Shown here one piece after another: positions 1 to 44,573 of a DNA stretch of 64,000 bases. The first letter of the stretch is position 1; the number at the start of each line of letters is the position of its first letter. This DNA comes from an uncultured Burkholderiales bacterium. GTDB taxonomy: Bacteria; Pseudomonadota; Gammaproteobacteria; Burkholderiales; Burkholderiaceae_C. The notes beneath the pieces are model-generated. The model had not been told where the DNA came from. It made no database searches and saw only the letters and a list, made by a program, of their open reading frames with translations. The stretch spans positions 4,759 to 68,758 of the forward strand of contig CAIMNS010000049.1 in assembly GCA_903842945.1 (NCBI GenBank), written 5' to 3'. A program made the position numbers and the translations under genes.

Positions 1-861
1 TTCAGCAATGCTGGGTTCGATGGCGGGGTTTCTGTCAAGCTCATAACTCATATGAACATCGTCGGTGGCTTGATCAAAAAGGCCGAGCAATTTTGAACCC
101 GTTGTAGCGGGTGCAGCCAAGAGCTCTGTCTTGTTCGTGACATAGGTGTAACCATTGGACTTCATAAGGCCCACCATATCACTGCCATCTGGGCGTCCAG
201 CTTGTTGCTCCGTCGTCCCCGTTGGGTTGACCGGTACAAAATAACGGCTGTTTCCACCTAAGATCACATCGACGCCTTTGCCCAAAGCCGTGTTGTAGCT
301 TTTGCTGCCTGGTGTCAATTGAGCTGCGATTTCATACTCGGCGTTTCTATTGCAAACGTGTGCGTAATTCACGGCAGGCGTGGCATGGGTGATTCTTGCT
401 GTGCTGACCACGCCAGTGGATTTGCCCTTGGTGATCGCTTGCTCAAGAAGCGTAGGAACGGATTTACCGTTGCTGCCATCCGTTTTGCAGTTGTTGATCC
501 AAGATCCACTCTTTGGAAACGCTGGATCCGTAGAAGGAGAGGTTGGATTGGTGTCAGCCGTCATTGAGATGACATTGTTTTTCATGCGCACACCAGTGAT
601 GTATCCTGCCATGCCTGGTGCTGAGTCGGTGGTTTGTGCATCTGCTGCATAGGTTCTAATTTTGGCTGCATAGGGTAGGGTGTCCATGGTCAACTTACCA
701 GCTTCACCGTAGCCATAAATACGAGCAGCTGTGACCACGACAGGTCCCATGCCGTCACCCAAAAAGAAGATCACATTTTTGGCTTCACCAGCAGCTTGAG
801 CGTTGAAACACATGGCGTTGAGGGTGGTGGCCAAAAGGGTAGCAATTATTTTCTTGTTCAT
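1..861 (-). CDS. phoA: Alkaline phosphatase PhoA family, paralog 1 (truncated by window start)
   Basis: Not in the ORF track. Manual translation from ATG 861 gives MNKKIIATLLATTLNAMCFNAQA-AGEAKNVIFFLGDGMG...TTDSAPGMAG...TARITHATPA, i.e. a Sec signal plus the AP metal-ligand and catalytic Ser motifs. Frame is open to the window edge. Confidence 0.92.
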   Translation of the reverse strand, partial: MNKKIIATLLATTLNAMCFNAQAAGEAKNVIFFLGDGMGPVVVTAARIYGYGEAGKLTMDTLPYAAKIRTYAADAQTTDSAPGMAGYITGVRMKNNVISMTADTNPTSPSTDPAFPKSGSWINNCKTDGSNGKSVPTLLEQAITKGKSTGVVSTARITHATPAVNYAHVCNRNAEYEIAAQLTPGSKSYNTALGKGVDVILGGNSRYFVPVNPTGTTEQQAGRPDGSDMVGLMKSNGYTYVTNKTELLAAPATTGSKLLGLFDQATDDVHMSYELDRNPAIEPSIAE

Positions 862-881
862 GATTTTCTCCGCGTATCAAT

Positions 882-2354
882 TTATAAACCGAGTGCTTTA
901 ACGATCAATGGGAAAACTTCGATGTTCTCCAACGATCCCTTGAATAAATTGGAATTCAGGCCAATGGCTCCCAACCAAACATCACCACCGCCGTGTGTTT
1001 CGTTCTCACCTGAAAGGCGTATGGCGGATTCTTGTTGGTAGTTGTCTGCACCAGTGATAGCGTCCGTCAATGGCGTCATCGCCGCTCTATCAGACACTCG
1101 GTTAGGTCCATTACCAAAAGCCAATACACTGAACGTGGCTCCTTCTGCATCTTTTGCTGGCGTTGTGGGTGTCAACCATTGTTTCAAAACGCCAAGAATA
1201 CCTGGATTGTCTTTGGTCGTTTTTCCTGTCAACGCTGAATAACCTTGCATCACCATGGTGTGGTCGTGATCGGCTGTGACCACAATCAAGGTGTTGCTGA
1301 GGGTAGGGTCGGTTTGACGGACTTTGGCGATGGCTGCAGCAATGGCGTTGTCAAAAGCGATGGTGTCTTGTAAGGCGCGCTTCGCGTTCGTGGCGTGGAG
1401 GGCATGGTCAATTCTTCCGCCTTCAACCACCAAGGTGTAGCCCTTGTTCTTTTTGGCAGCCAAGATGTCCATGGCCTTGGTTGTCATCTCTGCCAAACTT
1501 GGCTCAACGGCTGGATTTCTGTCCAAGTCATAGGACATGTGTCCTCCTGAGAACGATGCATCCAAAACGCCTTGATCAAACAAGGCAAAAAGTTTTGTAG
1601 AGGAGTTGATGGAGACAGCGTTCAGGCTAGGTAAATCGTTGGCAAACGCATAGCCTTGACCTTTCATCTCGGTGATCAAGTTTCTGCCGTCAGGACGGCC
1701 GGCTTTCTCAAGCGCAGAGCCAGAGCTGTTGAAGGGGATGAAATACTTGCTGTTGCCACCCATCAAAACATCAACGCCGTTACCAAGTGCAGCGTTGAAG
1801 CCCGCGCCACCTGGAACGGCTTGTCTGGCGATGTCGTACTCAGCATTTCTGTTGCAAATGTGAGAGAAGGTTGCTGCTGGCGTGGCGTGGGTCAGTCTGG
1901 CCGTGGTAACGATACCTGTTCCCATGTTGTTGGCTTTTGCCAGTTCCAAGAGGGTTTGGACAGGCTTACCGTTGGTGGACACGCAATTGTTCACGGCATT
2001 TGACACACCTGTTGTTGCATCTTTACCAGGGCTCACAGAGGTGGTGTCAGAAGACATGGAAACCACGTCTGAGTTCATCTTCACACCCGTCATGTAAGCG
2101 GACATGGATGCGGCACTCTCGGTGACTTGAAAATTTTGAGAAAAAGTTTTGATGAAAGCTGTATCTGGTAAGGTGTCCATGGTCAATTGACCATCTTCTC
2201 CGTAGCCGTAAATGCGCGCAGCTGTTTGAACGGTGACGCCCATGCCATCACCTAAAAAGAAGATGACATTTTTTTGGGGTGTTTCACTAGATGAGCAAGC
2301 GCCCAAGAGGCCGATTGTGACCACCGACAATAAAACCGATAAGTATTTTTTCAT
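882..2354 (-). CDS. phoA: Alkaline phosphatase PhoA family, lipoprotein (paralog 2)
   Basis: Motifs FLGDGMG, VTESAAS (catalytic Ser), THATPA, VEGGRIDHALH, TADHDH, ETHGG. Lipobox LGAC. Confidence 0.95.
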   Translation of the reverse strand: MKKYLSVLLSVVTIGLLGACSSSETPQKNVIFFLGDGMGVTVQTAARIYGYGEDGQLTMDTLPDTAFIKTFSQNFQVTESAASMSAYMTGVKMNSDVVSMSSDTTSVSPGKDATTGVSNAVNNCVSTNGKPVQTLLELAKANNMGTGIVTTARLTHATPAATFSHICNRNAEYDIARQAVPGGAGFNAALGNGVDVLMGGNSKYFIPFNSSGSALEKAGRPDGRNLITEMKGQGYAFANDLPSLNAVSINSSTKLFALFDQGVLDASFSGGHMSYDLDRNPAVEPSLAEMTTKAMDILAAKKNKGYTLVVEGGRIDHALHATNAKRALQDTIAFDNAIAAAIAKVRQTDPTLSNTLIVVTADHDHTMVMQGYSALTGKTTKDNPGILGVLKQWLTPTTPAKDAEGATFSVLAFGNGPNRVSDRAAMTPLTDAITGADNYQQESAIRLSGENETHGGGDVWLGAIGLNSNLFKGSLENIEVFPLIVKALGL

Positions 2355-2382
2355 GTTTCACCTTAAAGAATAGACGATCATT

Positions 2383-2416
2383 AGCTTAATGGGTACATAT
2401 GAAAGTTACGTGACAT
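2383..2416 (-). promoter_or_regulatory. Pho box promoter for the phoA pair
   Basis: ATGTCAC-GTAA-CTTTCAT (2416-2399), 10 bp, then TAAGCT (2388-2383). Confidence 0.8.
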
Positions 2417-2447
2417 GGGCCGGCTGTTGAAAGTTTTAGCTCAGAAG

Positions 2448-2481
2448 GTGTCATGAAAATGTCATTTGAGCTATTTAAGCT
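2448..2481 (+). promoter_or_regulatory. Pho box promoter for ppk2
   Basis: GTGTCAT-GAAA-ATGTCAT (2448-2465), 10 bp, then TAAGCT (2476-2481). Confidence 0.85.
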
Positions 2482-2514
2482 AAGTGTTGGTTCAATATTT
2501 AGAAGTTCAACACC

Positions 2515-3426
2515 ATGTCTACAAAGCTAAACCTTGATGCGGCACAAATACAGCGACTGAAAGAAGATATCATGGACAGCTTGGACGAAGAGCTTGAAAA
2601 TGAATTTGAAGATGTTGGTTTTGGAGATCCGGAAAGTTTCTCTGCCAAAGCCATTGAATTCAGACGGTTTTATTTTCGCGAGTTGATCAAGCTCCAAGGT
2701 GAACTGGTCAAGTTGCAAGACTGGGTGGTGGCCAACAAGCACAGAATGGTCATTGTTTTTGAAGGCAGAGATGCTGCCGGTAAAGGGGGCGTGATCAAAA
2801 GAATCACGCAACGCTTGAACCCACGCATATGCCGAGTGGCTGCTCTTCCCGCACCCAATGATCGTGAAAAAACACAATGGTATTTTCAGCGCTATGTCTC
2901 CCACCTTCCCGCTGCGGGTGAAATTGTTCTGTTTGACAGAAGCTGGTACAACCGTGCAGGTGTGGAGAAGGTCATGGGTTTTTGCTCCGACGAAGATTAC
3001 GAGGAGTTTTTTAAATCCGCACCAGAGTTTGAAAAAATGCTCACAAGAAGTGGCATTCAAATCATCAAATATTGGTTCTCCATCACAGACGATGAGCAGT
3101 ACTCTAGATTTTTAGGCCGCATCCACGATCCCTTGAAACAGTGGAAACTCAGTCCCATGGATTTGGAGAGCCGTCGTCGCTGGGAGGATTACACCAGAGC
3201 AAAAGAGACGATGATTGAAAGAACACACATCCCAGAAGCGCCTTGGTGGGTGGTTCAAGCGGTCGACAAGAAAAAGGCCAGGCTCAATTGCATCAGTCAC
3301 TTGCTGTCTCAAGTGCAATACTCGGAAATCAACCCACCGGAAATCGTGATGCCAGATCGTGTTCGCAATCCTGACTACATCCGCCACGCCATCCCTCAAG
3401 GCATGATCGTGCCCGAGAAATATTAA
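2515..3426 (+). CDS. ppk2: Polyphosphate kinase 2
   Basis: Walker A FEGRDAAGKGG, FDRSWYNRAGVE, WKLSPMD. Confidence 0.97.
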   Translation: MSTKLNLDAAQIQRLKEDIMDSLDEELENEFEDVGFGDPESFSAKAIEFRRFYFRELIKLQGELVKLQDWVVANKHRMVIVFEGRDAAGKGGVIKRITQRLNPRICRVAALPAPNDREKTQWYFQRYVSHLPAAGEIVLFDRSWYNRAGVEKVMGFCSDEDYEEFFKSAPEFEKMLTRSGIQIIKYWFSITDDEQYSRFLGRIHDPLKQWKLSPMDLESRRRWEDYTRAKETMIERTHIPEAPWWVVQAVDKKKARLNCISHLLSQVQYSEINPPEIVMPDRVRNPDYIRHAIPQGMIVPEKY

Positions 3427-4619
3427 GCTGCTGACTTTTGAGGGTTCGTTTTGAAGGGGTTTCTTTGCTCAAGGTGGGCCATGTATTGCTCTACGTTTTG
3501 ACCTTCTTGATTCAAAAACTCGTCCACGGCTTTTGCAAATGAGGGGTGGGCCAGCCAGTGGGCGCTTTGCGTCATGACAGGTAAGAGGGCTCGCGCCATC
3601 TTGTGCTCGCCTTGCGCGCCTCCTTCAAACCGCTCCACGCCTTTTTCAATGCACCACTCAATGGGTTGGTAGTAACAGGCCTCAAAGTGCAGGCAATCTA
3701 CCCGCTCAAGGGCGCCCCAATACCGTCCATAAGCTACCATGGGCTTGTGGTCTGAGTTCCTTTGGAGGGCCACCAAACTGCAGGCCATGGGATGGCCCTC
3801 TCGGTAGGCAATGAACATCACCCAGTTGTCGATCATTTGCTGCTTCATCTCTTCAAAAAAAGAGGGCGTCAAATAGGGTGAATTGCCGTGTTCTAAATAA
3901 GTTTGTTGATAGCAACGGTAAAAAAAATCCCAATGTTCATGGCTGATTTGAGGGCCTTCAAAGGTTTTAAAAGTCACCTGTGCTTGAGATACTTTTTTAC
4001 GTTCTTGTTTGATTTTTTTTCGTTTCTCTTGATTCATCGAATTTAAAAAATCATCAAAATGATCGAATGGTTTTTCATCCAAATTGGCGTTTTGCCAATG
4101 AAATTGAACCGTGTGCCTCTCAAGCATGTGGCACTCTTGCGCAGCCTTCATGTCCGCTTGGCTGGCATAGAGCATGTGGAGTGAAGACACGCCCCAAGTT
4201 AAACATTGATCGAGCACCGCTTGGAGAAGTTCGGTCTTGAGTTCTTGTGTTTTGGCCAGCAAGCGAGATCCTGGTACCGGGCTAAATGGCGGGGCGATCA
4301 GAGCCTTGGGGTAATAATGCAGCCCGTGACGATCATAGGCTTGTGCCCAAGCCCAGTCAAAGACGTATTCCCCATAAGAGTGTGACTTGAGATAAAGGGG
4401 GCATGCAGCAAGGAGCTCATCCTTGGCGTGCAGTGTGAAGTATTTGCAGGTCCAACCCGTTTTGCTTGTTGCACTGGCACTCTCGTGCATGGCGTTCAAG
4501 TATTCATAACGAAGAAAGGGCGTGGGAACAGAATCAGACAATAAAAGCGCATTCCACTGGGTTTTTTCGATGCTGGCCATCGAATCATGCACCTCAATGA
4601 CATAATTGGATTGATTCAT
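3423..4619 (-). CDS. GNAT/FemAB-like protein (DUF482 type)
   Basis: YLKSHSYGEYVFDWAWA, GRYWG, LHFEACYYQPIE, FEGGAQGEHK. Confidence 0.88.
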   Translation of the reverse strand: MNQSNYVIEVHDSMASIEKTQWNALLLSDSVPTPFLRYEYLNAMHESASATSKTGWTCKYFTLHAKDELLAACPLYLKSHSYGEYVFDWAWAQAYDRHGLHYYPKALIAPPFSPVPGSRLLAKTQELKTELLQAVLDQCLTWGVSSLHMLYASQADMKAAQECHMLERHTVQFHWQNANLDEKPFDHFDDFLNSMNQEKRKKIKQERKKVSQAQVTFKTFEGPQISHEHWDFFYRCYQQTYLEHGNSPYLTPSFFEEMKQQMIDNWVMFIAYREGHPMACSLVALQRNSDHKPMVAYGRYWGALERVDCLHFEACYYQPIEWCIEKGVERFEGGAQGEHKMARALLPVMTQSAHWLAHPSFAKAVDEFLNQEGQNVEQYMAHLEQRNPFKTNPQKSAA

Positions 4620-11784: not shown

Positions 11785-13325
<1,541 letters not shown>

Positions 13326-13350
13326 TCGCTCCTGAGCGTTTGACGCCTAC

Positions 13351-13395
13351 CCCTCTGTCTGGCCGCAAAAAGTGGCTGGTCAGAGGGTTTTTTTT
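13351..13395 (+). terminator. Intrinsic terminator after ilvC
   Basis: CCCTCTGTCTGGCCGC-AAAAA-GTGGCTGGTCAGAGGG hairpin followed by T8. Confidence 0.8.
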
Positions 13396-13403
13396 GACAT
13401 GCC

Positions 13404-14723
13404 TTAGATGAAAAGCAGCAAAGCAATCATAGCGGCAGACAGACACGTCGACAGTGTTCCGATCAGCAGGGACTTTGCGCCCATTTGAACGATGTCTCTT
13501 TGCCGATCAGGTGCCATGGAACCCATGCCCGCAATGACAATGCCTAGGCTGCCGAAGTTCGCAAAGCCACAAAGCAAATAAGTCATGAGCACTCTGGAGT
13601 GTTCGCTCATGGCATTGGGGTCCAACTTTGAGAGATCCAAATAAGCAATGAACTCGTTCAAGACCAATTTGGTGCCCATCAGTTGTCCTGCGATTTGGGT
13701 GTCCTTCCATTCGATGCCAAGGGTCCATGAAAAGGGTTGCATCACCCAGCCGATCACGCGCTGTATGGTCAAAGCAGAGCCATCCCAAAGGGGCAGCAGT
13801 TGAAGAATGCTGTTGCCAAGAGACACCAAGGCCACCAAAACAATCAACATGGCAATGACACTTGCGAGTAAGCGCATGCCTTGATAGGTGCCATCACTGA
13901 TGGCATCCATCGTGCTTTGGTATTTTCTGTGTTGATCGGTGCTTTCAATCAATGCTGAGATATAAGCCCTCAATCCATGGTTTTGTAATCCATGAGACTC
14001 GGCCTCAGTGGAGGAGCTCTCAGGCGATGGATCTTTTGGAATGGCCACCAAACTCAAAACAATGGCTCCGGGTGCACTGATCAAGGATGCGATGATCAAA
14101 TGGGTGACCACGTGAGGGACAGAGTTTTGCAGAAAACTTGCATAGATGACGAGCACGGTGCCGGAAATGGTTGACATGCCAGTGCTCATGACGACAAACA
14201 ATTCGGACCTGGAGAGCCCACTTAAATAAGGCCTGATCAGCAAAGGTGCTTCAACAATGCCCACAAAAACGGTTGCAATGCTTGCAAAGGACGTGGCGCC
14301 AGACACATTCAAGATCTTTCCCAGCAACCAAGCAAAACAACCAATGAGCACTGGCAAAACGCGCCAGTAATAAAGCAGCGCTGAAAGGGCGCTGAAGATC
14401 AAAATCAAGGGCAGCGCTTGCAATCCAAGGACAAAGGACATGCCTGGAGACTTTTCTTCAAAGGGCAGTGGCCCTCCACCTAAATAGCCAAAGACCAGTG
14501 AGGTACCCGCTTGGGTGGCTTTTTGAAGTTCAAGGACACTTTGGTTCAAGGTGCCCAAGCAACTTTGTATGAAAGGTATTTTCAAGAGCGCCAAAGCCAA
14601 GACAAACTGAAACAAAAGTCCTTTGGCCAAGCTCTTGTAGTCAATGCGCGCGCGGTTTTCAGATACCCCAATGGTGATCAACAAGATCAAAGAGACACCA
14701 ATCAAAGATTGATAATTTTCCAT
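13404..14723 (-). CDS. nupC: Concentrative nucleoside transporter (CNT/NupC family)
   Basis: ALPLILIFSALSALLYY, FVGIVEAPLLIRPYL, GTKLVLNEFIAY, YLLCGFANFGS. Confidence 0.93.
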   Translation of the reverse strand: MENYQSLIGVSLILLITIGVSENRARIDYKSLAKGLLFQFVLALALLKIPFIQSCLGTLNQSVLELQKATQAGTSLVFGYLGGGPLPFEEKSPGMSFVLGLQALPLILIFSALSALLYYWRVLPVLIGCFAWLLGKILNVSGATSFASIATVFVGIVEAPLLIRPYLSGLSRSELFVVMSTGMSTISGTVLVIYASFLQNSVPHVVTHLIIASLISAPGAIVLSLVAIPKDPSPESSSTEAESHGLQNHGLRAYISALIESTDQHRKYQSTMDAISDGTYQGMRLLASVIAMLIVLVALVSLGNSILQLLPLWDGSALTIQRVIGWVMQPFSWTLGIEWKDTQIAGQLMGTKLVLNEFIAYLDLSKLDPNAMSEHSRVLMTYLLCGFANFGSLGIVIAGMGSMAPDRQRDIVQMGAKSLLIGTLSTCLSAAMIALLLFI

Positions 14724-14764
14724 ACACAGACTTTCCAGTGAAACGATTTAAATGGACTGCTCTT

Positions 14765-15805
14765 TCAAGCGCCCAATCGAATCAAATCATCCTCGGTCAA
14801 ATGTTCGGTTTTTTTTCCAATCCAACTGAGCAGTCGAGATTTCCAGTTTAAAAAAGAGCTTGGCGCTTTGACCGCAGTATACTCAAGTCGGCCTCGCGCA
14901 CCGCGCTTGCGCTTGAAGTCACCTGCGCCTGAGCTGTAATTGAGCAGCAGTTGTCGCTCTAGGGTGTAGTTGTAGATAGAGGCAAACAAGAGCCGATAGA
15001 TGCCCGGCCCGGTTGCACTCTCCCAATAACCCAAAGCGGGAACAGTCAAGGTGTCCCCAACTTGGTGCAGCAAAGCAAAGGCCACCATGTCACCTTCCTC
15101 GTTCATCAAGCTCAAGCAAGACATCCATTTGGAGTTGATCATGTCTTTGAAAAAAACAGGTGTGTAATTGGCATTGAAGACACTGTGTTTTTTGATGTAA
15201 ATGAGCTCATACAAGGCTTGCATGCGTTCAGCTTGAAGGTCATCGATCGTGTCTAGAGTTGAGACCTTGAGGTGGGATTTTTTGAGGGCACTTAAATCTC
15301 TTGCGAGGTGTGAAGGTTTGCTTTGCACGCCCATTCGTAGATCGAATTCATAAATGACACGCGCAGGTAATGCAACAAAGCCCATGCCTTGAAGCTCAGT
15401 CAGGAGTGAGCCGTGTTGATGTGACAGTAAATTCCGCACAAACAGATAGCGCTTTAATTTCTTCAGTATCAAAGAACGACTGGCCTCGCATATGGCCGAG
15501 TCTTTGACCGATTCCCATACATTGGTCGATATGGGAAAGTTCCCAACGATGGCGTTTTTACTCATGCCAATCCAATTGGCCAAATGCGACAAGGCCTTGA
15601 GGGACATTTTTAAAATGAAGGGTCCCTGGAGCTCATCGGCCGCATAGTCAAACCAGGCAATTTTGGGTGAAGTGATGTAACAAGCGGGTAAAGGTTTTTG
15701 CTCGCTGGTCACGGTGACAGGCAAGTCGCCTTGCTCCCAATGAAGTTCTGCGCCAGCGTTCAGCATCCACTCTGAGAGTGAATGACCCCAGGGGGCTGGA
15801 CTCAT
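14765..15805 (-). CDS. Uncharacterised GNAT/FemAB-like protein
   Basis: LYELIYIKKHSVFNANYT, TVPALGY..GIYRLL, LNYSSGAGDFKRKRGA..LEY. The fold assignment is by recollection. ATGA-coupled to btaA. Confidence 0.65.
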   Translation of the reverse strand: MSPAPWGHSLSEWMLNAGAELHWEQGDLPVTVTSEQKPLPACYITSPKIAWFDYAADELQGPFILKMSLKALSHLANWIGMSKNAIVGNFPISTNVWESVKDSAICEASRSLILKKLKRYLFVRNLLSHQHGSLLTELQGMGFVALPARVIYEFDLRMGVQSKPSHLARDLSALKKSHLKVSTLDTIDDLQAERMQALYELIYIKKHSVFNANYTPVFFKDMINSKWMSCLSLMNEEGDMVAFALLHQVGDTLTVPALGYWESATGPGIYRLLFASIYNYTLERQLLLNYSSGAGDFKRKRGARGRLEYTAVKAPSSFLNWKSRLLSWIGKKTEHLTEDDLIRLGA

Positions 15806-17046
15806 CGAGGGTTTAATCGATACAAATGCAAGGCACCATAGATTCCTGATCGATCTTGTGGGCCCAAGAGGTCAGAAGTTTGGTGATCTCTGGTCCACAC
15901 ATTGGCCAAGGGGCCTGTCAGGCAAGCATCAACAGGGGAATGGGAGCCGGCCGTCCTAAAGATGACCCTTGCGCCTGGCTTGGCCGCATGGGTAATGGCC
16001 GTCCACACAGCGGTCAGCTCTTGAGGTGTCATCCAGTCCTGAGCGTCCAAAAGGTTCACAATATCAACCGACTCAGGGCCTAACTTGATCAGTTTGTCTC
16101 TGATGTTGTTGTGTTCTATTGAGATTTTATGGATGGACTCGCGAAGGAAAGCGTAATTCTCTTTGACCAAATAAAGGGGCAAAGCGCTTTGACCCGTCTC
16201 ATCGTATTTTCTAGCAAAGGCTTGCCATGCAAAATAGTTGTCCTTGATGGGGACAACCGTTGCCAACTGCCTAGCCCGTTGTTTGAGGATTTCAGACATC
16301 TGTTCTGGTTTGTTGTCACACAAAGCCAGGTGCTGGCTTGGGGGAATCCCAAGGTTGTACAGTGCATAGGGGCTGCTAGCAATTTTGGTCACCAACCTAG
16401 AGTCGAAAATCTTTGCGACCTTTTGATCAAACCACTGCTTTTGATCTTCGACAGTTTTTTGTTCTAAAAGTTCAGACAGCTTGACGCCGTGCAATTTTGC
16501 CCCCATGTGGATGATGCCAATGATTTGACCCAGCAGTCCATATTTGTAAAAGCCTTTGGCAAACATTTGAATCCTCTTGGATCCAAATGGGCCACTTTCC
16601 CAGTAGTCCCGGCTTTCTTGATCGAGTTGAGGGGAGATGATGGCGTTGTAGATTCTGACATTGCTGGTGGACTTGGCGACCCCAAAGAATCTGAAGAAGT
16701 CTTCATGGTACTCTAGCGTCTTGAGAGCCGCAATTTTCAAGTGATTCAAAGCAATGTGCGCGTGGTTCAGGTCCACAACAGAAATCTTTGCGGGATTGGC
16801 CATGAGATAAGACAAAGCGTTACAGCCGCCCGAGGCAATGGTCAGCATGTGGTCGGTGGCTTGGATGTCTAAAGCTTTCATGTCCACAATGGGGTCTTCC
16901 CAAATTTGTGTGTAAACCAGGCGATCGAACCACATGGCGAAAATCTTATCCTTCAAACTTGCTTTGGATTTATGCCCAAAAACAGCGTTCTTCAACAGTA
17001 CTTTTGACTTCTTGAGACTTAGAGTTGGATTTGGAGCTGCGTTCAT
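15802..17046 (-). CDS. btaA: SAM:diacylglycerol 3-amino-3-carboxypropyltransferase BtaA (DUF3419)
   Basis: LVYTQIWEDPIVDMKAL, TIASGGCNALSYL, DLNHAHIAL, NYFAWQAF, LLDAQDWM, RVIFRTAG, DRSGIYG. Start refined to ATG 17046. Confidence 0.92.
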   Translation of the reverse strand: MNAAPNPTLSLKKSKVLLKNAVFGHKSKASLKDKIFAMWFDRLVYTQIWEDPIVDMKALDIQATDHMLTIASGGCNALSYLMANPAKISVVDLNHAHIALNHLKIAALKTLEYHEDFFRFFGVAKSTSNVRIYNAIISPQLDQESRDYWESGPFGSKRIQMFAKGFYKYGLLGQIIGIIHMGAKLHGVKLSELLEQKTVEDQKQWFDQKVAKIFDSRLVTKIASSPYALYNLGIPPSQHLALCDNKPEQMSEILKQRARQLATVVPIKDNYFAWQAFARKYDETGQSALPLYLVKENYAFLRESIHKISIEHNNIRDKLIKLGPESVDIVNLLDAQDWMTPQELTAVWTAITHAAKPGARVIFRTAGSHSPVDACLTGPLANVWTRDHQTSDLLGPQDRSGIYGALHLYRLNPR

Positions 17047-17106
17047 GGTTGAAATAAATCCTTGTGTTTGAAGATATGTGCGCAATTGTGAACCCTTAAT
17101 ATTTCA

Positions 17107-17140
17107 ATTGAATGTTACTTTTATTACTTTTCCGTGACTT
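17107..17140 (-). promoter_or_regulatory. Candidate Pho box promoter for btaA
   Basis: AAGTCAC-GGAA-AAGTAAT (17140-17123), 10 bp, then a weak -10 TTCAAT. Confidence 0.5.
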
Positions 17141-17226
17141 AAAATTTTCAATTTCCATCCATGATGTTTTCTGCAGGGTTGTTGGCCCCTTTGTTTTTGA
17201 TAAAAATACGGGCTTAAAGCTTCGAC

Positions 17227-17260
17227 ATGTCACAAAGTTTTAATGCTCATGGGGTAACAT
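17227..17260 (+). promoter_or_regulatory. Pho box promoter for the TPAT operon
   Basis: ATGTCAC-AAAG-TTTTAAT (17227-17244), 10 bp, then TAACAT (17255-17260). Confidence 0.72.
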
Positions 17261-17284
17261 ATTTGCCAAATATTGGACACATAA

Positions 17285-18184
17285 ATGTCAAATTCTTGGG
17301 TTAAAAAATTCTTTTCTTTTGCTGGCATCGTCATGGCCTCTTTAGCGATATCCGGCTGTGCGATGAACACCTTTGTCATTGATCAAGTGGCCAAGAACTT
17401 GGTGTCAGACGATGACAATGAGCAAGATCTATGGTTGGCACGCGATGCAAGTCCTTTTTACTTGAAGTTGACGGAAAATTTATTGATCCGCTCTCCTGCT
17501 AATTTAAAACTGGCTGAGACCGTTTGCAGTGGTTTTACGCAGTACGCCTACACTTTTATTGCATTTGAAGCGGACAAGCTGGAGGCCAGTGATTACAAAA
17601 GCGCTGAGATCATCAGAGAGCGAGCATCCAAGATGTATGCGCGTGCCTACAAACACGGTATCAAAGCTTTGAACTTGAGCTTCACAGGTTTTGAGGCAAG
17701 GCTGAGGGCGCCAAATTCTACCGATCCTATCGTCTTACCAGTCAGCTCCGTGGGACTGCTGTATTGGTCTGCTGCTTCTTTGGGGGGTTGGATTTCAAGC
17801 GCCAAGGACATGCCCGACTTGGTGGCAGATTTTCCGGTGGCCTTGCGATTGGCCAGTTTGGCATGGAAATTGGATCCCTCCTACTCACAGGGCTCCTTGG
17901 CCAGTTTGATGGGGACTTTTGAGTGGGCCAACCCCAACGGTTCAAAACCCTTGGCAACACACTATTTCGATCTGGCCCTTCAGTACTCAAAAGATCAAAA
18001 CGCAGGTCCCTTTGTGTCAAAGGCAGAACGAGTTGCTGTCGCCATGAAAGACAAGAAGATGTTTGAGCAACTCCTTAGCAAGGCCATCGACATTGCATTG
18101 AAATATCCAAGTTTACAAAATGAGGCCATGCGACTTCGTGCACAATGGTTGCTTGATAACGCACAAGAGTTACTTGAAAGTTGA
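17285..18184 (+). CDS. tatT: TatT lipoprotein, TPR-like TRAP accessory component (TPAT system)
   Basis: Lipobox LAISGC, helical repeat pattern (CSGFTQYAYTF, LLYWSAASLGGWI), directly upstream of dctP and dctQM. Confidence 0.85.
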   Translation: MSNSWVKKFFSFAGIVMASLAISGCAMNTFVIDQVAKNLVSDDDNEQDLWLARDASPFYLKLTENLLIRSPANLKLAETVCSGFTQYAYTFIAFEADKLEASDYKSAEIIRERASKMYARAYKHGIKALNLSFTGFEARLRAPNSTDPIVLPVSSVGLLYWSAASLGGWISSAKDMPDLVADFPVALRLASLAWKLDPSYSQGSLASLMGTFEWANPNGSKPLATHYFDLALQYSKDQNAGPFVSKAERVAVAMKDKKMFEQLLSKAIDIALKYPSLQNEAMRLRAQWLLDNAQELLES

Positions 18185-19203
18185 AGATGAATTTTAGACC
18201 TCTCGCACGAATCTTTTCCTGTTGCCTGCTTCTTACTTGGGGATCGCTCGCCTTTGCGGCGGACAAACCCCTGAGGATAGGGACCTTGGCGCCTAAAAAT
18301 TCTTTGTATTACAGGCAACTCATTGATGTGGCTGAGGCATGGAAGAGCGCCGCGGGAGCCAACTCCAAATACACCGTTTACGCAGACGGCAGTCAAGGCG
18401 GGGAGACAGAGTTGGCCAGAAGAATGCGAATTGGGCAACTTCAAGGAGCACTCTTGTCTGTCGTGGGTTTGAAGGAGATTGAACCGTCCATCAGTGCTTT
18501 GCAATCCATGCCCTTGCTTTTTAGAACTTGGGAAGAGGTCGATTTCGTCAGGGAAAAGTTGCGCCCCGCCATGGAAAAGAAGTTTTTAGAAAAGGGGTTT
18601 GTTGTCCTGGCCTGGGGGGATGCAGGCTGGGTCAGGTTTTTTTCAAAGGAACCTGCCTTCAAACCCGACGACTATAAAAAAATGAAGTTTTTTTCTTGGG
18701 GGGGAGAACCCGAGCAGCAAGAGATCATGAAGAACTTGGGCTATACACCAGTTCCTTTGGAGACCACGGACATTTTGCCCTCCATACAAACAGGCATGAT
18801 TTCTGTGGTGCCTTCGACGCCTTACTTTGCGATGGCCAGTCAAATTTACAACACGGCCAACAACATGCTTGAGATCAACTGGGCGCCTGTGGTTGGGGCC
18901 TTGGTGATCACCAAAAAAGCCTGGGATGAGATGAGCCCTGCAGTCCAAGACGTGGTTCGATCGGCTGGTGAAAAGGCGGGAGACCAAATCAGGATCAAAG
19001 CCCGTTTGGAAGTTGAAGAGGCCGTTGAGGCCATGAAAAAGAGAGGTTTGGTGGTGAACAAGCCAAGCCCCGAGCAAATGAAAGAGTGGAATACTTTGGC
19101 CGCGAACCTCTACCCCAAGATCAGGGGCACGATGGTGCCCGCAGAAACGTTTGATGAAGTGTTCAAACATTTGAATGCATTCAGAGCCGGCAAGCAAAAG
19201 TGA
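18181..19203 (+). CDS. dctP: TRAP substrate-binding protein DctP (TatP type)
   Basis: LRIGTLAPKNS, GSQGGETELARRMRIGQLQG, LAWGDAGWVRFFSK. Confidence 0.92.
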   Translation: MKMNFRPLARIFSCCLLLTWGSLAFAADKPLRIGTLAPKNSLYYRQLIDVAEAWKSAAGANSKYTVYADGSQGGETELARRMRIGQLQGALLSVVGLKEIEPSISALQSMPLLFRTWEEVDFVREKLRPAMEKKFLEKGFVVLAWGDAGWVRFFSKEPAFKPDDYKKMKFFSWGGEPEQQEIMKNLGYTPVPLETTDILPSIQTGMISVVPSTPYFAMASQIYNTANNMLEINWAPVVGALVITKKAWDEMSPAVQDVVRSAGEKAGDQIRIKARLEVEEAVEAMKKRGLVVNKPSPEQMKEWNTLAANLYPKIRGTMVPAETFDEVFKHLNAFRAGKQK

Positions 19204-20996
19204 AGTTGAATCCCTTCAAACTGGATGAATTGATTTCATCCCTTGCTTTGCTGTTGATGGCCATCATCCCCGTCGTTGAAATCCTTGCCCGCCCCATTTT
19301 TGGTAAAGGCATTGAGAACGCTCCCATCTTGGTTCAGCACTTTGGTCTGGTCATGTCGATGTTTGGTGCCATAGCGGCCTATCGATTTGGACATCTTTCA
19401 AGCATTGGTGTGATTTTTTACTCTTTTCAGGTCCCAGCGCGTCTTTTGTCGAGTTTAATTTGTGGCCTCTTGTGCTGGGCTTGTTGGCATTTTGTGAGCA
19501 CAGAAAGGTCGGCCCATCAAATGCTGGCTTACTCGATTCCAATTTGGATTTTTCAGTTGGTGATGCCTGTTGGGTTTTTGCTTTTGAGTTGGCAAATCAT
19601 CACGCAAGGTTTGCAATCAAACCTGCCGAAGGCGATGTCTATTCTAGGCATGACGGCCGTCAGTTATTTGCTCTTTCAGTATCTTGAGTCGAATGCAGGG
19701 TCCATGGGGTCCATGGGGTTTGTGTTGGTTGTTTTGGTGGTGATGTTTTTAGGTGGGGCACCTATCTTCTCCATCATTGCAGCCTTGGCCTTGGGCTTGT
19801 TTTGGCAAGAGGGTTTGCCATTGTCTTCGGTGGCCCTGTCACATTACCAAATCACCGTCAATGCTTCATTGCCCGCATTGCCCTTGTTCACCCTGGCGGG
19901 CTTGGTCTTTGCGTCCACGGGGTCAGCCAAGCGTTTGGGCCAAGTTTTCATGGCCATGTTTGGCACGGGCGTGAGGGGAACGGTCTTTGCAGCGACCGTT
20001 TTGTGCTCATTTTTTACGGCTTTTACCGGAGGCAGTGGCGTGACCATTTTGGCGCTTGGGGGTCTGTTGCTTCAATTGTTAAGTGACACGGGCTATTCCA
20101 AAAAAAGGGGGATCAGTCTGGTAACCAGTGCCAGCGCACTTGGCGTTTTGCTGGCACCTTCTGTGCCATTGATCATGTATGCGATCATTGCTCGCGTTCC
20201 GATCAATGCCATGTTTTTGGCTGGTATCGTGCCTGCGGTGGTCATGGTTTTGTCTTTATTGGTCTTTGGTGGCTATTTGAAGCAGGACAATCTAGTTGCT
20301 TCAAATGAGCATGTGCATGTTTTTTCTTGGTTGAAATTAAGGCATGCGTTGTGGGATGCCAAATGGGAGATTTTCACGCCCTTTGTTGCCATTGGCTCTT
20401 TGGTCAGTGGATTTGCAACCCCGACAGAGAGCGCTGCGATCACGGCTGTTTATGCCCTTGTCACGCAAATGATCTTTAACCAAGAGTTGAGCGTGGATCA
20501 ATTCAAGCAGTCCTTGCTCAAGTGCACACAAATCATTGGAGGCGTGATGCTGGTGCTTGGCATGGCCCTTGGGATGACCAATTACTTGATCGATGCAGGA
20601 ATTCCTGACCTGGCCATCCAATGGGTTCAAAGCATCACCAGCAACAGGTACGTTTTTTTATTGGCCCTCAATGTATTTTTATTTTTTGCTGGGGCCCTCA
20701 TGGAAATCTATGCGGCCATTGTGGTGTTGGTGCCTTTGTTGTTGCCTTTGGCCATGTCCTATGACATTCATCCCATTCATTTCGGGATCATCTTTTTGGC
20801 CAACATGGAGATGGGATTTTTATGTCCACCTGCCGGCATGAATATCTATTTTGCCTCAGCGGTCTTTAACCAGCCCTTGAAGGAGGTGGCCATCTCTATT
20901 TGGCCTGCATTGATCGCAATTTTTGTTGGCACTGTGATCATCTCGTGGCTTCCCATACTCACGATTGCCTTGCCTGAGTTTTTTCACATGGTCTAA
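19200..20996 (+). CDS. dctM: TRAP fused small/large permease DctQM
   Basis: About 600 aa polytopic protein. LPALPLFTLAG, TAFTGGSGVTILALG, PTESAA, HPIHFGIIFLANME.GFLCPPAGMN. Confidence 0.93.
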   Translation: MKLNPFKLDELISSLALLLMAIIPVVEILARPIFGKGIENAPILVQHFGLVMSMFGAIAAYRFGHLSSIGVIFYSFQVPARLLSSLICGLLCWACWHFVSTERSAHQMLAYSIPIWIFQLVMPVGFLLLSWQIITQGLQSNLPKAMSILGMTAVSYLLFQYLESNAGSMGSMGFVLVVLVVMFLGGAPIFSIIAALALGLFWQEGLPLSSVALSHYQITVNASLPALPLFTLAGLVFASTGSAKRLGQVFMAMFGTGVRGTVFAATVLCSFFTAFTGGSGVTILALGGLLLQLLSDTGYSKKRGISLVTSASALGVLLAPSVPLIMYAIIARVPINAMFLAGIVPAVVMVLSLLVFGGYLKQDNLVASNEHVHVFSWLKLRHALWDAKWEIFTPFVAIGSLVSGFATPTESAAITAVYALVTQMIFNQELSVDQFKQSLLKCTQIIGGVMLVLGMALGMTNYLIDAGIPDLAIQWVQSITSNRYVFLLALNVFLFFAGALMEIYAAIVVLVPLLLPLAMSYDIHPIHFGIIFLANMEMGFLCPPAGMNIYFASAVFNQPLKEVAISIWPALIAIFVGTVIISWLPILTIALPEFFHMV

Positions 20997-21005
20997 CGAT
21001 AACCA

Positions 21006-22256
21006 ATGGCCTTAAAAATGATCAACCGTCTTTCTTTTCAACACGCCTTCCTTGTCTTTGTCCTTCACTGCCTTTGTGCATTGACCCTCAACAGCTTTGC
21101 TCAAAGCAACGCGCCAAAAAAGCCATTGGTCCTTCTCCTTGGGATCGATGGTTTTAAGCCAAGTTATTTGAATTTAGGCGTCTCACCGAATTTGAATTCT
21201 CTGGTATCAACTGGGGTCCTTGCAAAAGGATCTATCTCTGCCTTCCCGTCCTTGACTTTTCCAAATTTTGTGAGTTTGGTCACAGGCCTCACCCCCGATC
21301 ACCATGGTATTGTGAACAACACCATGACCGATCCGACAACAGATCAGCTCTTTACCTTGGGTTCAAGAGAGGCCGTTGAGAACCCTTTTTGGTGGACGCA
21401 AACCACACCGATTTGGAACAATGTAAGGCAACAAGGCGGGATTGCTTCTGCCATGTTTTGGCCCGGTTCTGAAGTTGAAATCAACGGTGGGCGGCCCAAC
21501 GATTGGGTCAGGTATGAGCATGGCATGTCTCACGACAAGAGACTTGAGCACTTGTTGACATGGTTGTCTAGAGGTGAGTCTTCAAGACCCCATTTCGCCA
21601 CACTGTACCTCTCCGATGTGGACTCTGCTGGGCATGAGTTTGGACCCGATAGCGAACAGGTCAAACAAGCAGTCGCTAAAGTAGATCAGACCCTAGGGAA
21701 ATTGCTGCAAGCACTTTCTAGCTTGGGTTTAAGAGAAAAAACCACCCTGGTGATCGTTTCTGATCACGGCATGGCCAACACGCCTTTGGATAAATCCCTT
21801 GATGTCAGTCAGTGGCTCAAAGATTTCCCTAAAGCCAAGTGGGAGTGGCAAGGTGCCACTTCAGCTGTCAGACTCCATGGTGAAAATGCAGCTCAAGTTC
21901 TCCAGACCTTGTCTCTTCAGTCCCATCTGCAATGCCATGAAAAAAGCAACTTGCCCGAGCGCTATAAGTTTGGACGGCATCCAAGAATTCCTGAAATTGT
22001 TTGTGTGTCTGACATGGGCTACACCGTCACGGCCAATCCCAGTCGAAAAGGACCCCTGGGTCAGCACGGGTTTGACCCCTTTTTGCCTGAAATGCATGGA
22101 CTCTTTTTGGCCTCGGGTTTTCGCATCCAACCTGGTGAATTGGGTTTGATTGAAAACATCGAGGTGTACCCGCTGTTGTGTCAATTGCTGGGTATTGTTG
22201 AGCAAAAAAATGATGCAAGGCATCTTTTGAAAGAGATCGTTTTGAATCCATCGTGA
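21006..22256 (+). CDS. Nucleotide pyrophosphatase/phosphodiesterase (NPP, alkaline phosphatase superfamily), secreted
   Basis: GIDGF, FPSLTFPNFVSLVTG (Thr nucleophile), DSAGHEFGP, VSDHGM, GQHGFD. Sec signal. Confidence 0.92.
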   Translation: MALKMINRLSFQHAFLVFVLHCLCALTLNSFAQSNAPKKPLVLLLGIDGFKPSYLNLGVSPNLNSLVSTGVLAKGSISAFPSLTFPNFVSLVTGLTPDHHGIVNNTMTDPTTDQLFTLGSREAVENPFWWTQTTPIWNNVRQQGGIASAMFWPGSEVEINGGRPNDWVRYEHGMSHDKRLEHLLTWLSRGESSRPHFATLYLSDVDSAGHEFGPDSEQVKQAVAKVDQTLGKLLQALSSLGLREKTTLVIVSDHGMANTPLDKSLDVSQWLKDFPKAKWEWQGATSAVRLHGENAAQVLQTLSLQSHLQCHEKSNLPERYKFGRHPRIPEIVCVSDMGYTVTANPSRKGPLGQHGFDPFLPEMHGLFLASGFRIQPGELGLIENIEVYPLLCQLLGIVEQKNDARHLLKEIVLNPS

Positions 22257-26894: not shown

Positions 26895-27545
26895 TTGAAT
26901 TACCCACATCCTATTTTGGCAAGAGAAGGTTGGCTCTACATTGCCTTGAGTTTGATTGCCGCAGTTGTCGCCCATTGGCAGGGGGGATGGGCTTGGGGTT
27001 TGCTCTTTGATCTGATGTGTGTTTTTGTCATCCAGTTTTTTCGTGACCCCCCTAGAGAAGTTCCAAGTGAAGAGGATGCGGTGTTGTCTCCAGCGGACGG
27101 TCGCGTCATCAAGGTCGAGCGGGCTTTTGATCCCTACGCCAACCGCGAAGCGATTTTGATCAGTGTCTTCATGAATGTGTTCAATGTCCATAGCAACCGA
27201 GTGAGCGTGAATGGCACAGTGAGCAAGATCGAGTATTTTCCTGGAAAGTTTTTCAACGCAGATTTAGACAAGGCCTCCACAGAAAATGAGCGCAATGCCA
27301 TGGTCATCGATGCGCAATTTGCAGGTCAGCCTAAAACCATCACCTTGGTCCAAGTTGCTGGTCTGATTGCCAGAAGAATTCTTTGTTATGTTCAGGTGGG
27401 AGAACAACTCCAAAAAGGTCAGCGCTACGGATTTATCCGGTTTGGCTCTCGAGTGGATGTGTACTTGCCTATCGATGCGATTGTGAAAGTGTCGCCTGGA
27501 GATAAAGTCTCTGCGACCATGACCATTTTGGCCAAATTAAGCTGA
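26895..27545 (+). CDS. psd: Phosphatidylserine decarboxylase proenzyme
   Basis: [40 protein letters not shown] cleavage site. Confidence 0.96.
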
Positions 27546-27590
27546 TGGGCTTCCCGCATTCAGGTGCATGTATTTAAAGGATTGAACGCG

Positions 27591-28436
27591 ATGAATCCCC
27601 TTGAAGTCCCAGAGGTCAAACTGAGCTCTAGAAAACCCCGCAAAGGCATTTACATGCTGCCCAATTTGGTGACCTTGGCAGCTTTGTTTGGGGGGTTTTA
27701 TTCCATCGTGATGGCGATGAACGAGCGCTTTGACGCGGCCACCATGGGAGTTTTTTGTGCCATGATTTTGGACAGCTTAGATGGTCGCGTGGCCCGCATG
27801 ACCAATACGCAAAGCGCTTTCGGTGAGCAAATGGATTCTTTGGCCGACATGGTGTCCTTTGGCGCAGCACCGGCCTTGATTTCTTATGAGTGGGCCTTGA
27901 AGGGCCTGGGTCGTTGGGGCTGGATTGCTGCATTTTTGTACTGCGCTTGTGCTGCTCTTCGCTTGGCCAGGTTCAATGTCAACACCAGCGTGGTCGATAA
28001 ACGGTTTTTTCAAGGTCTGCCTTCCCCAGCTGCAGCGGCGGTCATCGCGGGTTTCATTTGGTTGATCAATGAAGCGGGCATTGACGGTCCAAGTGTTGCA
28101 TGGGGGATGTTTGCGCTTTGTTTGTTCGCAGGCTTGAGCATGGTCACCAACGCACCTTATTACAGCTTCAAAGATGTTCAAATGAAGAAAAGCGTGCCTT
28201 TTGCGACCATCGTTTTGCTCGCTCTGATCATCGCTGTCATCAACATTCATCCACCTACCGTTTTGTTTGCATTGTTTGTAGCCTATGGCTTATCAGGCTA
28301 CGTCATCTATGCTTGGAGAAAAGCGAGCGGATTACAAGCAAGTGTGATCAGTACATCCACCGACGAGCCTGAGGAGTCAGGCCTTCATGATCTTGAGGCG
28401 GATAAGGAAGATCAAGCGCGACACCCCCAAAGCTAA
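27591..28436 (+). CDS. pssA: CDP-diacylglycerol--serine O-phosphatidyltransferase
   Basis: LDGRVARMTNTQSAFGEQMDSLADMVSFG CDP-alcohol phosphotransferase motif. Confidence 0.96.
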   Translation: MNPLEVPEVKLSSRKPRKGIYMLPNLVTLAALFGGFYSIVMAMNERFDAATMGVFCAMILDSLDGRVARMTNTQSAFGEQMDSLADMVSFGAAPALISYEWALKGLGRWGWIAAFLYCACAALRLARFNVNTSVVDKRFFQGLPSPAAAAVIAGFIWLINEAGIDGPSVAWGMFALCLFAGLSMVTNAPYYSFKDVQMKKSVPFATIVLLALIIAVINIHPPTVLFALFVAYGLSGYVIYAWRKASGLQASVISTSTDEPEESGLHDLEADKEDQARHPQS

Positions 28437-33187: not shown

Positions 33188-33195
33188 GATCAGGC

Positions 33196-44562: not shown

Positions 44563-44573
44563 GGATGGGCTCT

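Follow-up and report, generated by a model that had tools for sequence, protein, structure and literature searches.

What is made of the lipid produced by a BtaA-type enzyme when the gene coupled to btaA is not the methyltransferase gene btaB? The question is raised by a stretch of 64,000 nucleotides from an uncultured Burkholderiales bacterium (GenBank assembly GCA_903842945.1, contig CAIMNS010000049.1, positions 4,759 to 68,758 of the forward strand), hereafter the window, in which a btaA-type gene runs directly into a gene for a 346-residue protein of the GNAT superfamily. That these two genes form a real, conserved and probably Pho-regulated module, whose chemistry we infer, is well supported by the comparisons reported below. 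Our reading, to which we give a probability of about 0.45, is that they constitute a phosphate-starvation (PhoB-type) lipid head-group module, in which BtaA would make diacylglyceryl-homoserine (DGHS) and its partner would N-aminoacylate or N-acylate this lipid. Literature searches found no publication describing a BtaA-GNAT pair.

A conserved pair of coupled genes

The btaA-type gene (DUF3419, PF11899) lies at 15802..17046 on the minus strand and codes for 414 residues. Its open reading frame (ORF) extends to 15802..17085 if the in-frame TTG at 17085, which adds 13 residues, is used as start; the ATG at 17046 is probably the true start, since the homologues are 413 residues long. The second gene, at 14765..15805 on the same strand, encodes a predicted tandem-GNAT transferase of 346 residues, assigned to the Fem/MprF structural class by AlphaFold and Foldseek. 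The TGA of btaA and the ATG of the GNAT gene overlap in the sequence ATGA at 15802..15805 (minus strand), as a preliminary description of the window had pointed out, and this overlap implies translational coupling of the two genes.

One genome per species was then scanned for the GNAT, which gave 72 independent loci. A DUF3419 gene accompanied it in 66 of them, directly upstream on the same strand in 65 and divergent in the remaining one (L022); five of the six loci devoid of DUF3419 end at a contig edge. The adjacency of btaA and the GNAT gene is thus far beyond chance, and at least 65 genomes carry the two as a conserved module. These span four proteobacterial classes and the Verrucomicrobia (Burkholderiales, Thiomicrorhabdus, Vogesella, Lysobacterales, Rhizobiales, Ferrovibrionaceae and Verrucomicrobia). 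Among the Burkholderiales, the pair was found in Limnohabitans-like metagenome-assembled genomes (MAGs), Polynucleobacter bastaniensis, strain AAP99 and Piscinibacterium; other carriers are Thiomicrorhabdus arctica, Vogesella urethralis and about 30 freshwater Verrucomicrobia. In most loci with both ORFs called, the two genes were spaced by −4, −1 or up to ∼21 nt, the exceptions being longer overlaps of the called ORFs in some Verrucomicrobia and a gap of 68-69 nt in Thiomicrorhabdus. Pairwise distances of BtaA and of the GNAT correlated across loci (r = 0.75), which is consistent with co-inheritance of the two proteins.

The best match to the window was a betaproteobacterial MAG (L001), whose two proteins are 96% and 99% identical to those of the window, which therefore derives from a freshwater member of the Burkholderiales. 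The MAG JBAXNB01 is 96-99% identical to the window. About 20 metagenome runs from lakes, freshwater, biofilm and seawater contained the window sequence itself. Fusion proteins were also considered as Rosetta-stone evidence. The sole candidate for a DUF3419::GNAT fusion, a 788-residue ORF in L055, was an artefact due to an open alternative frame in high-GC DNA, and two long family members, P0395 and P0417, are fusions of an ATP-grasp protein, not of BtaA, with the GNAT.

The upstream gene encodes a BtaA-type enzyme

The name btaA, given to the upstream gene on first reading, was borne out by a profile match, by identity to BtaAs linked to btaB, by a tree and by invariant residues. The PF11899 profile (DUF3419, BtaA family) matched residues 50-423 of the 427-residue ORF over its positions 7-384 of 385, with an E-value of 8.3e-99; no NCBIfam model matched this protein or its 346-residue partner. 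Canonical loci, in which a DUF3419 gene is followed by a methyltransferase gene, were recovered from Beijerinckiaceae (L073, with a plcP-like and a GT4 gene upstream), Rhizobium leguminosarum (L079), Sinorhizobium meliloti (L080), the Bacteroidota member Chondrinema (L081) and L082. Their methyltransferases are class-I enzymes of 217-235 residues with the BtaB N-terminal signature, and in L075 a DUF3419-methyltransferase fusion was found. The window BtaA is 41-49% identical to the proteobacterial BtaAs linked to btaB or fused to the methyltransferase (L073, L075, L079, L080), and is farther from the GNAT-linked DUF3419 proteins of Gammaproteobacteria (39-43%) and Verrucomicrobia (25-28%).

In a neighbour-joining tree, built without bootstrap and with the DUF3419 protein of a KASIII cluster (see below) as outgroup, the btaB-linked proteins of L073, L079 and L022 and the fusion of L075 nested between the GNAT-linked gamma and beta clades, and the BtaA of the Chondrinema btaAB locus was sister of the verrucomicrobial GNAT-linked clade. 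Of 56 residues invariant among relatives of the window BtaA, all were kept in L075 and L082 and 55 in L079. On the strength of the tree and these shared residues, we rejected the idea that the GNAT-linked DUF3419 proteins are a separate paralogue with another acceptor.

The motif TIASGGCNALSYL of the predicted core for binding S-adenosylmethionine (SAM) was conserved, with S72, C75 and N76 invariant and G73 and G74 nearly so, and close homologues carry precomputed matches to Methyltransf_25 or Methyltransf_11. An AlphaFold model (predicted local distance difference test score, pLDDT, of 89) displayed a Rossmann core of the SAM-methyltransferase type with a large helical insertion. Its matches in the PDB were class-I SAM methyltransferases and were weak (E 1e-4 to 1e-2), as no BtaA structure has been solved. 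Given its orthology to the canonical BtaAs, the protein is predicted to be a SAM:diacylglycerol 3-amino-3-carboxypropyl transferase, making DGHS from SAM and diacylglycerol with release of methylthioadenosine. That BtaA forms DGHS from SAM and diacylglycerol is established (Klug & Benning 2001; Riekhof et al. 2005; both cited in PMC4796936).

The partner has a predicted fold close to that of aminoacyl-tRNA-dependent transferases

A word-indexed search for homologues of the 346-residue protein returned 171 clusters at 90% identity, and an exhaustive profile search 1115 clusters at the 50% level, 552 of them at E ≤ 1e-30; nearly all are unnamed. Profile databases say little of this family. On the 346-residue protein Pfam gave a sub-threshold match to PF13480 (Acetyltransf_6) alone (E 0.0095, 16.5 bits against a cut-off of 22), and PF02388 (FemAB), PF09924 (LPG_synthase_C/DUF2156) and PF13444 were not matched; a few homologues have precomputed matches to PF13480 or PF04339. 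A search of PDB sequences with the profile of the family alignment yielded two spurious matches and no Fem or MprF chain.

Structure prediction was more informative, and the label 'GNAT/FemAB-like' of the preliminary description held after the AlphaFold and Foldseek check that it had proposed. The model, computed from an alignment of 103 sequences, had a pLDDT of 91.8 and a predicted template-modelling (TM) score of 0.90. It consists of two beta-alpha GNAT-like halves (residues ∼1-160 and 165-315) and two C-terminal helices only, with no transmembrane or other extra domain. The top Foldseek matches in the PDB were synthase domains of MprF (4v36, 4v34/4v35, 5vrv, 6lv0, and the full-length 9j8q/9goe/7duw), followed by FemX (7z6a, 4ii9, 1ne9) and then by the aminoacyl-tRNA-dependent peptide synthases Sbb17/Sba18 (9wqx, 9wqy). 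All these matches had E-values of 2e-10 to 2e-7 and TM-scores of 0.46-0.53 with both halves aligned, over 330-379 columns for the MprF synthase domains and FemX. Tandem GNATs using acetyl-coenzyme A (acetyl-CoA), namely VipF, 2wpw, Eis and GLYAT, ranked lower, with TM-scores of 0.30-0.39. Every characterised PDB match with a TM-score of ∼0.46 or more (MprF, FemX, Sbb17/Sba18) is thus an aminoacyl-tRNA-dependent enzyme.

Residue conservation was examined across the family. There are 31 invariant residues, and the protein bears the invariant motif LNYSSGAGDFKRKRG. Among the invariant residues are those of a very basic motif, L-N-Y-S-S-G-A-G-D-F-K-R-K-R-G (residues 288-302), situated around beta5-alpha4 in the second GNAT domain, in which K298, R299, R301 and G302 are invariant and F297 nearly so; its segment G-D-F-K-R-K-R-G may be the equivalent of the F-K-x-x-G motif of the Fem family (F304/K305 of FemX). 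In classical GNATs, the beta4-alpha3 loop bears the motif that binds the pyrophosphate of CoA. By inspection, this motif (Q/R-x-x-G-x-G/A) is absent from the corresponding loop of the 346-residue protein (residues 261-268), which varies in sequence and length across the family, with G268 alone conserved and a dip in pLDDT.

Because the characterised structural neighbours at a TM-score of ∼0.46 or more depend on tRNA, and because the CoA loop motif is missing, we favour an aminoacyl-tRNA as donor. The modelled fold would then be that of an aminoacyl-tRNA-dependent transferase building an aminoacyl-homoserine head group on diacylglycerol, a phosphorus-free counterpart of the aminoacyl-phosphatidylglycerol made by MprF. 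We put forward this more specific proposal only tentatively.

Two other sets of genes in the window were noted in this connection. One is a second Fem-superfamily protein (PF04339 FemAB_like, 398 residues, E 7.6e-135), encoded at 3423-4619 on the minus strand between PPK2 and NAD synthase; it is of a different subfamily from the 346-residue protein, as the hhalign probability between them was 8%. The other, at 32450-33981 (minus strand), is an adjoining pair of genes for an Arg-tRNA-protein transferase (ATE_N/ATE_C) and a Leu/Phe-tRNA-protein transferase. Such proteins are the GNAT-related aminoacyl-tRNA transferases of the N-degron pathway, and the two genes look like ordinary housekeeping.

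A possible acyl donor and the distant branch of the family

Alternatively, the amine of DGHS may be the acceptor and acetyl-CoA, or a fatty acyl group carried by CoA or by the acyl carrier protein (ACP), the donor. DGHS would thereby become N-acetyl- or N-acyl-DGHS, which would be anionic and free of phosphorus and could take the place of phosphatidylglycerol or cardiolipin. The GNAT fold itself and the identity of the sole Pfam match, Acetyltransf_6, speak for such a donor, the acetyl-CoA tandem GNATs VipF, 2wpw and Eis were also significant in Foldseek, and tRNA is no more plausible a ligand of the basic KRKRG motif than CoA or ACP. We regard this as a serious alternative, though a somewhat less likely one than an aminoacyl-tRNA, as the domain arrangement is nearer to the tRNA-dependent class (TM 0.46-0.53, against 0.33-0.39), the canonical CoA pyrophosphate loop motif is missing, and no acyl-activating gene was found in the BtaA-type loci.

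Genes that could supply acyl donors do occur beside distant homologues of the GNAT, and this is a further point for that alternative. At 27-30% identity, homologues were found on replicons of Rhizobium, Shinella, Paraburkholderia, Bacillus mycoides, Paenibacillus and Deinococcus. These distant GNATs end a conserved cluster of six to seven genes encoding a KASIII, an NAD(P) oxidoreductase, a metallo-beta-lactamase-type (MBL) hydrolase, an adenylating enzyme similar to F390 synthetase, a DUF3419 or ATP-grasp protein, and the GNAT; examples are Rhizobium pMK-2 (L076), Bacillus mycoides p237 (L077) and a Paraburkholderia plasmid (L078). In P0395 and P0417, the ATP-grasp and GNAT proteins are fused. 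We take the first four genes to be reminiscent of OleABCD or beta-lactone-type lipid pathways. As judged from gene content, these clusters show that the GNAT family repeatedly follows an enzyme predicted to install an amino-acid-like moiety. Donor and acceptor may differ between branches of the family.

The GNAT is an additional partner of BtaA rather than a simple substitute for BtaB

The preliminary description had placed the GNAT gene in the position of btaB and reported that no methyltransferase is seen in the window. The second statement was confirmed. Neither the BtaB of L073 nor the methyltransferase domain of L075 had a tblastn match in the 64-kb window or in the Burkholderiales loci, a second methyltransferase family (the Verrucomicrobia/Lysobacterales type described below) had no tblastn match in the window, and a Pfam scan of 54 window ORFs, essentially all the non-overlapping ORFs of at least 150 residues, revealed no methyltransferase domain. 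More broadly, neither a BtaB nor a member of this second family was found within ∼8 kb of the pair in about 38 Burkholderiales loci, two Thiomicrorhabdus loci and one Vogesella locus. Wherever BtaB was found, it was adjacent to btaA, fused with it or within ∼1 kb of it (L022, L028, L073, L075, L079-L083), so the lack of a nearby BtaB suggests, but does not prove, a real absence. No BtaB from Burkholderiales came out of a search with that of L028, the closest relative among Alphaproteobacteria; the named homologues were all alphaproteobacterial and their contexts were canonical or L028-like only, which is suggestive but short of a proof of absence.

The first statement stood in part. It agrees with the absence of BtaB from the window and from the Burkholderiales loci, but elsewhere the GNAT coexists with btaB or with another methyltransferase. 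A BtaB-like gene lies beside the pair in L022 and L028, both from genomes labelled Rhizobiales, and in L083, a related metagenome contig; in L022, btaB-btaA is divergent from the GNAT gene, and in L028 and L083 btaA-GNAT is convergent with btaB. In 27 loci of Verrucomicrobia and Lysobacterales, a different class-I methyltransferase gene divergently adjoins btaA. From this coexistence we concluded that the GNAT is an extra, ancient partner of BtaA, and not a simple substitute for BtaB. The methyltransferase would have been lost, or never present, in some lineages, and by this comparison the methylation step appears to be dispensable in several of them.

The methyltransferase of the 27 loci (within L040-L070; for instance L049 1764-2576, L047 5820-6479 and L067 5565-6266) has weak Methyltransf_25 matches only, and no BtaB N-terminal signature was found in this family. 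It could be an analogue of BtaB, or could methylate the new head group. Another methyltransferase was noticed in Polynucleobacter bastaniensis (L019), where a 236-residue class-I enzyme (306-1016, minus strand) and a GDPD phosphodiesterase (1867-3213, minus strand) are encoded 4-6 kb upstream of the pair. The SAM motif is all that the former has in common with BtaB.

These data bear on a second alternative, in which the main product is still the trimethylated lipid of btaA-btaB bacteria, diacylglyceryl-N,N,N-trimethylhomoserine (DGTS). Another part of the genome would then encode BtaB or an analogue, such as the Verrucomicrobia methyltransferase, and the GNAT would be accessory, serving a minor side-branch lipid or another molecule. 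We consider this unlikely. In its favour, the GNAT occurs beside a typical BtaB in three loci and beside the divergent class-I methyltransferase in 27, and btaBA can be located away from plcP (PMC4796936); moreover, the window covers 64 kb of the source genome, and the methyltransferase of L019 is 5.7 kb from the pair. The latter, however, resembles BtaB in its SAM motif alone, and the distribution of BtaB itself argues the other way, be it its constant proximity to btaA, its absence around the pair in the Burkholderiales, Thiomicrorhabdus and Vogesella loci, or the alphaproteobacterial origin of all the named homologues retrieved.

Phosphate-stress context and transcription unit

For the phosphorus-free lipid first proposed for this locus, a context of lipid remodelling under phosphate stress is supported by plcP-like, GT4 and phosphatase genes near the pair and by repeats resembling Pho boxes. 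A metallophosphoesterase gene of the PlcP/LpxH type was found at 8 kb or less from the pair in 23 of the 72 loci, in three phyla or classes, and these PlcP-like proteins are 48-53% identical to the PlcP of the canonical plcP-GT4-btaA-btaB locus L073. Other recurrent neighbours were GT4 (Agt-like; 10/72 loci), OlsB-like (PF13444; 8 loci), phosphatidylserine decarboxylase and alkaline phosphatase genes. In L083, an operon Metallophos(plcP)-GT4-DUF3419-GNAT is flanked by phoH, alkaline phosphatase and phosphonate ABC transporter genes, and in Thiomicrorhabdus a minimal set, btaA-GNAT-plcP, stands amid unrelated genes. Operons plcP-btaAB and plcP-agt with Pho boxes have been described in marine bacteria (Sebastian et al. 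2016, PMC4796936). In L008 (9052-9633), and also in L009, L010 and L015, we noted a small Cys-rich ORF of ∼160-196 residues with a C-x-x-C-C motif and no Pfam match; it is conserved between the GNAT and OlsB-like genes in the cluster btaA-GNAT-ORF-olsB-plcP-GT4.

Upstream of btaA in the window, 94 nt before its ATG, a Pho-box-like element (17112..17140, minus strand) consists of three 7-nt repeats in 11-nt phasing, AAGTCAC ggaa AAGTAAT aaaa GTAACAT, and is conserved in L001-L005. Since strict regular expressions for the Pho box caught just 8-22% of the loci, a weighted score was used instead, with three half-sites compared to the E. coli consensus and ranked against background windows. The site of the window scored 13, at or above the 95th percentile of the background. 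Across loci, which are phylogenetically related, 42 of 64 reached the 95th percentile and 24 exceeded the 99th, the sites in Proteobacteria being typically 85-94 nt before the start codon. No sigma-70 −35/−10 consensus was found upstream of btaA. From these sites, the btaA-GNAT module is probably regulated by a PhoB-type system.

The pair is followed, 41 nt downstream of the GNAT gene, by a gene for a nupC-type nucleoside transporter (13404..14723, minus strand; Pfam and NCBIfam matches), and the order btaA-GNAT-nupC is also found in L001-L005. There is no terminator-like site between the end of the GNAT gene at 14765 and the start of nupC at 14723. The strongest such site within 13200-17400 is a hairpin after nupC (13257..13274, minus strand), GGCGCGCAATTGCGCGCC with seven G-C pairs, then a T-rich tail, which resembles an intrinsic terminator. 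Both genes of the pair are transcribed, as fragments from close relatives were present in two lake metatranscriptomes, and one lake metatranscriptome contig covers 14484-14856, bridging the GNAT-nupC junction. Given the lack of a terminator before nupC, the strong one after it and the contig across the junction, the transcription unit is probably btaA-GNAT-nupC, ending at this hairpin. A nucleoside transporter is odd cargo for a lipid operon, yet consistent with the scavenging of phosphorus from nucleotides.

The window as a whole is a phosphate-scavenging neighbourhood (882-3426, 17285-22256 and 44014-54893). It contains genes for an alkaline phosphatase, for PPK2 and for a TRAP transporter (TAtT/DctP/DctQM), after which comes an NPP-type phosphodiesterase gene, as well as a TonB system, phnCDE and a full carbon-phosphorus (C-P) lyase cluster with phnG, H, I and J, ABC-type ATPases, an amidohydrolase, a DUF1045/PhnP-like protein and a PhnO-like GNAT. 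Genes for phosphatidylserine decarboxylase and a pssA-like CDP-alcohol phosphatidyltransferase (26895-28436, plus strand) come directly after the ExbB/ExbD/TonB/TonB-dependent-receptor cluster, which places genes of phosphatidylethanolamine synthesis ∼10 kb from the module. A metatranscriptome contig of run X26 joins 17326 to 18787, omitting 1460 nt of the TAtT/DctP genes; the joint has only 21 nt on one side and probably reflects strain variation or a chimeric assembly.

A proposed pathway and the points against it

In the pathway that we propose, BtaA would move the 3-amino-3-carboxypropyl group of SAM onto diacylglycerol, yielding DGHS; in many relatives, the diacylglycerol may come from the cleavage of phospholipids by the adjacent PlcP-like phosphoesterase. 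The coupled GNAT, judging from its fold and the gene coupling, would then put an acyl-type group on the free alpha-amino group of DGHS, this amine acting as the nucleophile on an activated acyl donor. With the favoured donor, an aminoacyl-tRNA, the head group would be an aminoacyl-homoserine, in effect a 'dipeptide'; with the alternative, acetyl-CoA or acyl-CoA/ACP, it would be a simple N-acyl derivative. In lineages devoid of the methyltransferase (the window, other Burkholderiales, Thiomicrorhabdus, Vogesella), the pathway would end with an N-substituted DGHS instead of DGTS. In the presence of a methyltransferase, part of the DGHS may go to DGTS and part to the new lipid, or methylation may take place on the new terminal amine.

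Several observations weigh against this pathway. The structural similarity of the GNAT to characterised enzymes is moderate (TM ∼0.5, 10-15% identity), the Pfam models of Fem and MprF proteins gave no match, and the chemistry of the family, its donor and its product are all inferred. In the distant KASIII clusters, an acyl-thioester donor and an acceptor other than diacylglycerol are plausible. The coexistence of the GNAT with BtaB (L022, L028, L083) or with another methyltransferase (27 loci) indicates that it is not needed to replace methylation, and the GNAT could not use trimethylated DGTS as substrate. A btaB may be present in the source genome outside the 64 kb covered here. Finally, no plcP-like gene was found in the 64-kb window, and the score of its Pho-box-like site is only at the 95th percentile of the background.

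That the GNAT acts not on the product of BtaA but on diacylglycerol itself, on a GT4-made glycolipid or on a non-lipid small molecule is very improbable: MprF-type enzymes do esterify lipid hydroxyls according to their PDB descriptions, alanyl-diacylglycerol synthases aminoacylate diacylglycerol, GT4 shares the operon of the GNAT in L083, and the distant homologues belong to non-BtaA clusters, with ATP-grasp replacing DUF3419 or fused to the GNAT, but the tight, near-universal coupling is to btaA, against 10/72 loci for GT4 and 23/72 for plcP, and the stop/start overlap suggests stoichiometric co-production with BtaA.

Significance

Among the major adaptations of aquatic microbes is the exchange of phospholipids for phosphorus-free lipids, for which bacteria are known to have a small set of head groups, namely those of DGTS, of glycolipids and of ornithine-type aminolipids. 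The existence of a conserved, probably Pho-controlled partner of BtaA, with a predicted fold like those of MprF and Fem, points to a DGHS-derived membrane lipid not described so far, which the pair would probably produce under phosphate shortage. The module is found in lineages dominant in lakes, would provide lipidomic surveys with a specific target mass, and may account for some of the 'unidentified aminolipids'; cultured carriers are Thiomicrorhabdus arctica DSM 13458, Polynucleobacter bastaniensis, Piscinibacterium candidicorallinum LMG 29480 (NZ_CP180191) and Vogesella urethralis. If an aminoacyl-tRNA is the donor, the product would represent a new lipid class and the reaction a novel role for charged tRNA beyond translation, extending tRNA-dependent lipid modification to lipids other than phosphatidylglycerol. 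Control of membrane charge would then be kept after phospholipid replacement under phosphate starvation, in abundant freshwater bacterioplankton (Burkholderiales of the Limnohabitans/Polynucleobacter type and Verrucomicrobia) and in some sulfur oxidisers.

Comparison with known systems

The closest known system is BtaA-BtaB of Rhodobacter sphaeroides, Sinorhizobium and Agrobacterium (Klug & Benning 2001 and Riekhof et al. 2005, cited in PMC4796936). The first enzyme is the same, DUF3419/BtaA, and in both cases btaA is followed by a translationally coupled gene for an enzyme that modifies the head group, in a context of plcP and of Pho regulation, which is probable here. The second gene differs, being there a class-I methyltransferase, BtaB, of ∼210-220 residues and here a tandem-GNAT transferase; the product there is a quaternary ammonium betaine, whereas the one predicted here is an amide-substituted DGHS. 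With the plcP-centred operons (plcP-agt and plcP-btaAB), the module shares PlcP- and Agt-like genes flanking the pair in many loci and Pho-box-like sites upstream. It departs from them in that none of the six types of plcP neighbourhood published in the available part of PMC4796936 has a Fem/MprF-like gene, and in that the 64 kb of the window are devoid of plcP. OlsB (PF13444), which with OlsA makes ornithine lipids, is also a member of the GNAT superfamily that builds a phosphorus-free aminolipid under phosphorus stress, and OlsB-like genes are neighbours of the pair in eight loci. It belongs, however, to another GNAT family, has a single domain, and its lipids have no glycerol backbone.

As to the transferase itself, MprF (L-PGS 4v36, A-PGS 4v34, and the Rhizobium tropici enzyme 6lv0) is the best structural match, with E-values of 2e-10 to 2e-9 and a TM-score of ∼0.5 over both GNAT domains; its substrate is a lipid head group, and it tunes membrane charge. 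MprF proper nevertheless has an N-terminal multi-pass flippase domain, and the 346-residue protein has no flippase or transmembrane domain and no sequence-level membership of that family (no PF09924 match). MprF esterifies the glycerol hydroxyl of phosphatidylglycerol, whereas the presumed acceptor here is the amine of a phosphorus-free lipid, in which an amide bond would be formed. FemX/FemAB (1ne9/7z6a) and Sbb17/Sba18 (9wqx/9wqy) also have the tandem GNAT fold in common with the 346-residue protein. They differ from it in sequence (11-15% identity, no PF02388 match) and in acceptor, which is for them a peptidoglycan precursor or an antibiotic scaffold and here would be a glycerolipid. In these enzymes, an amine of the substrate attacks the aminoacyl donor, and this is the chemistry that we propose for the GNAT partner of BtaA.

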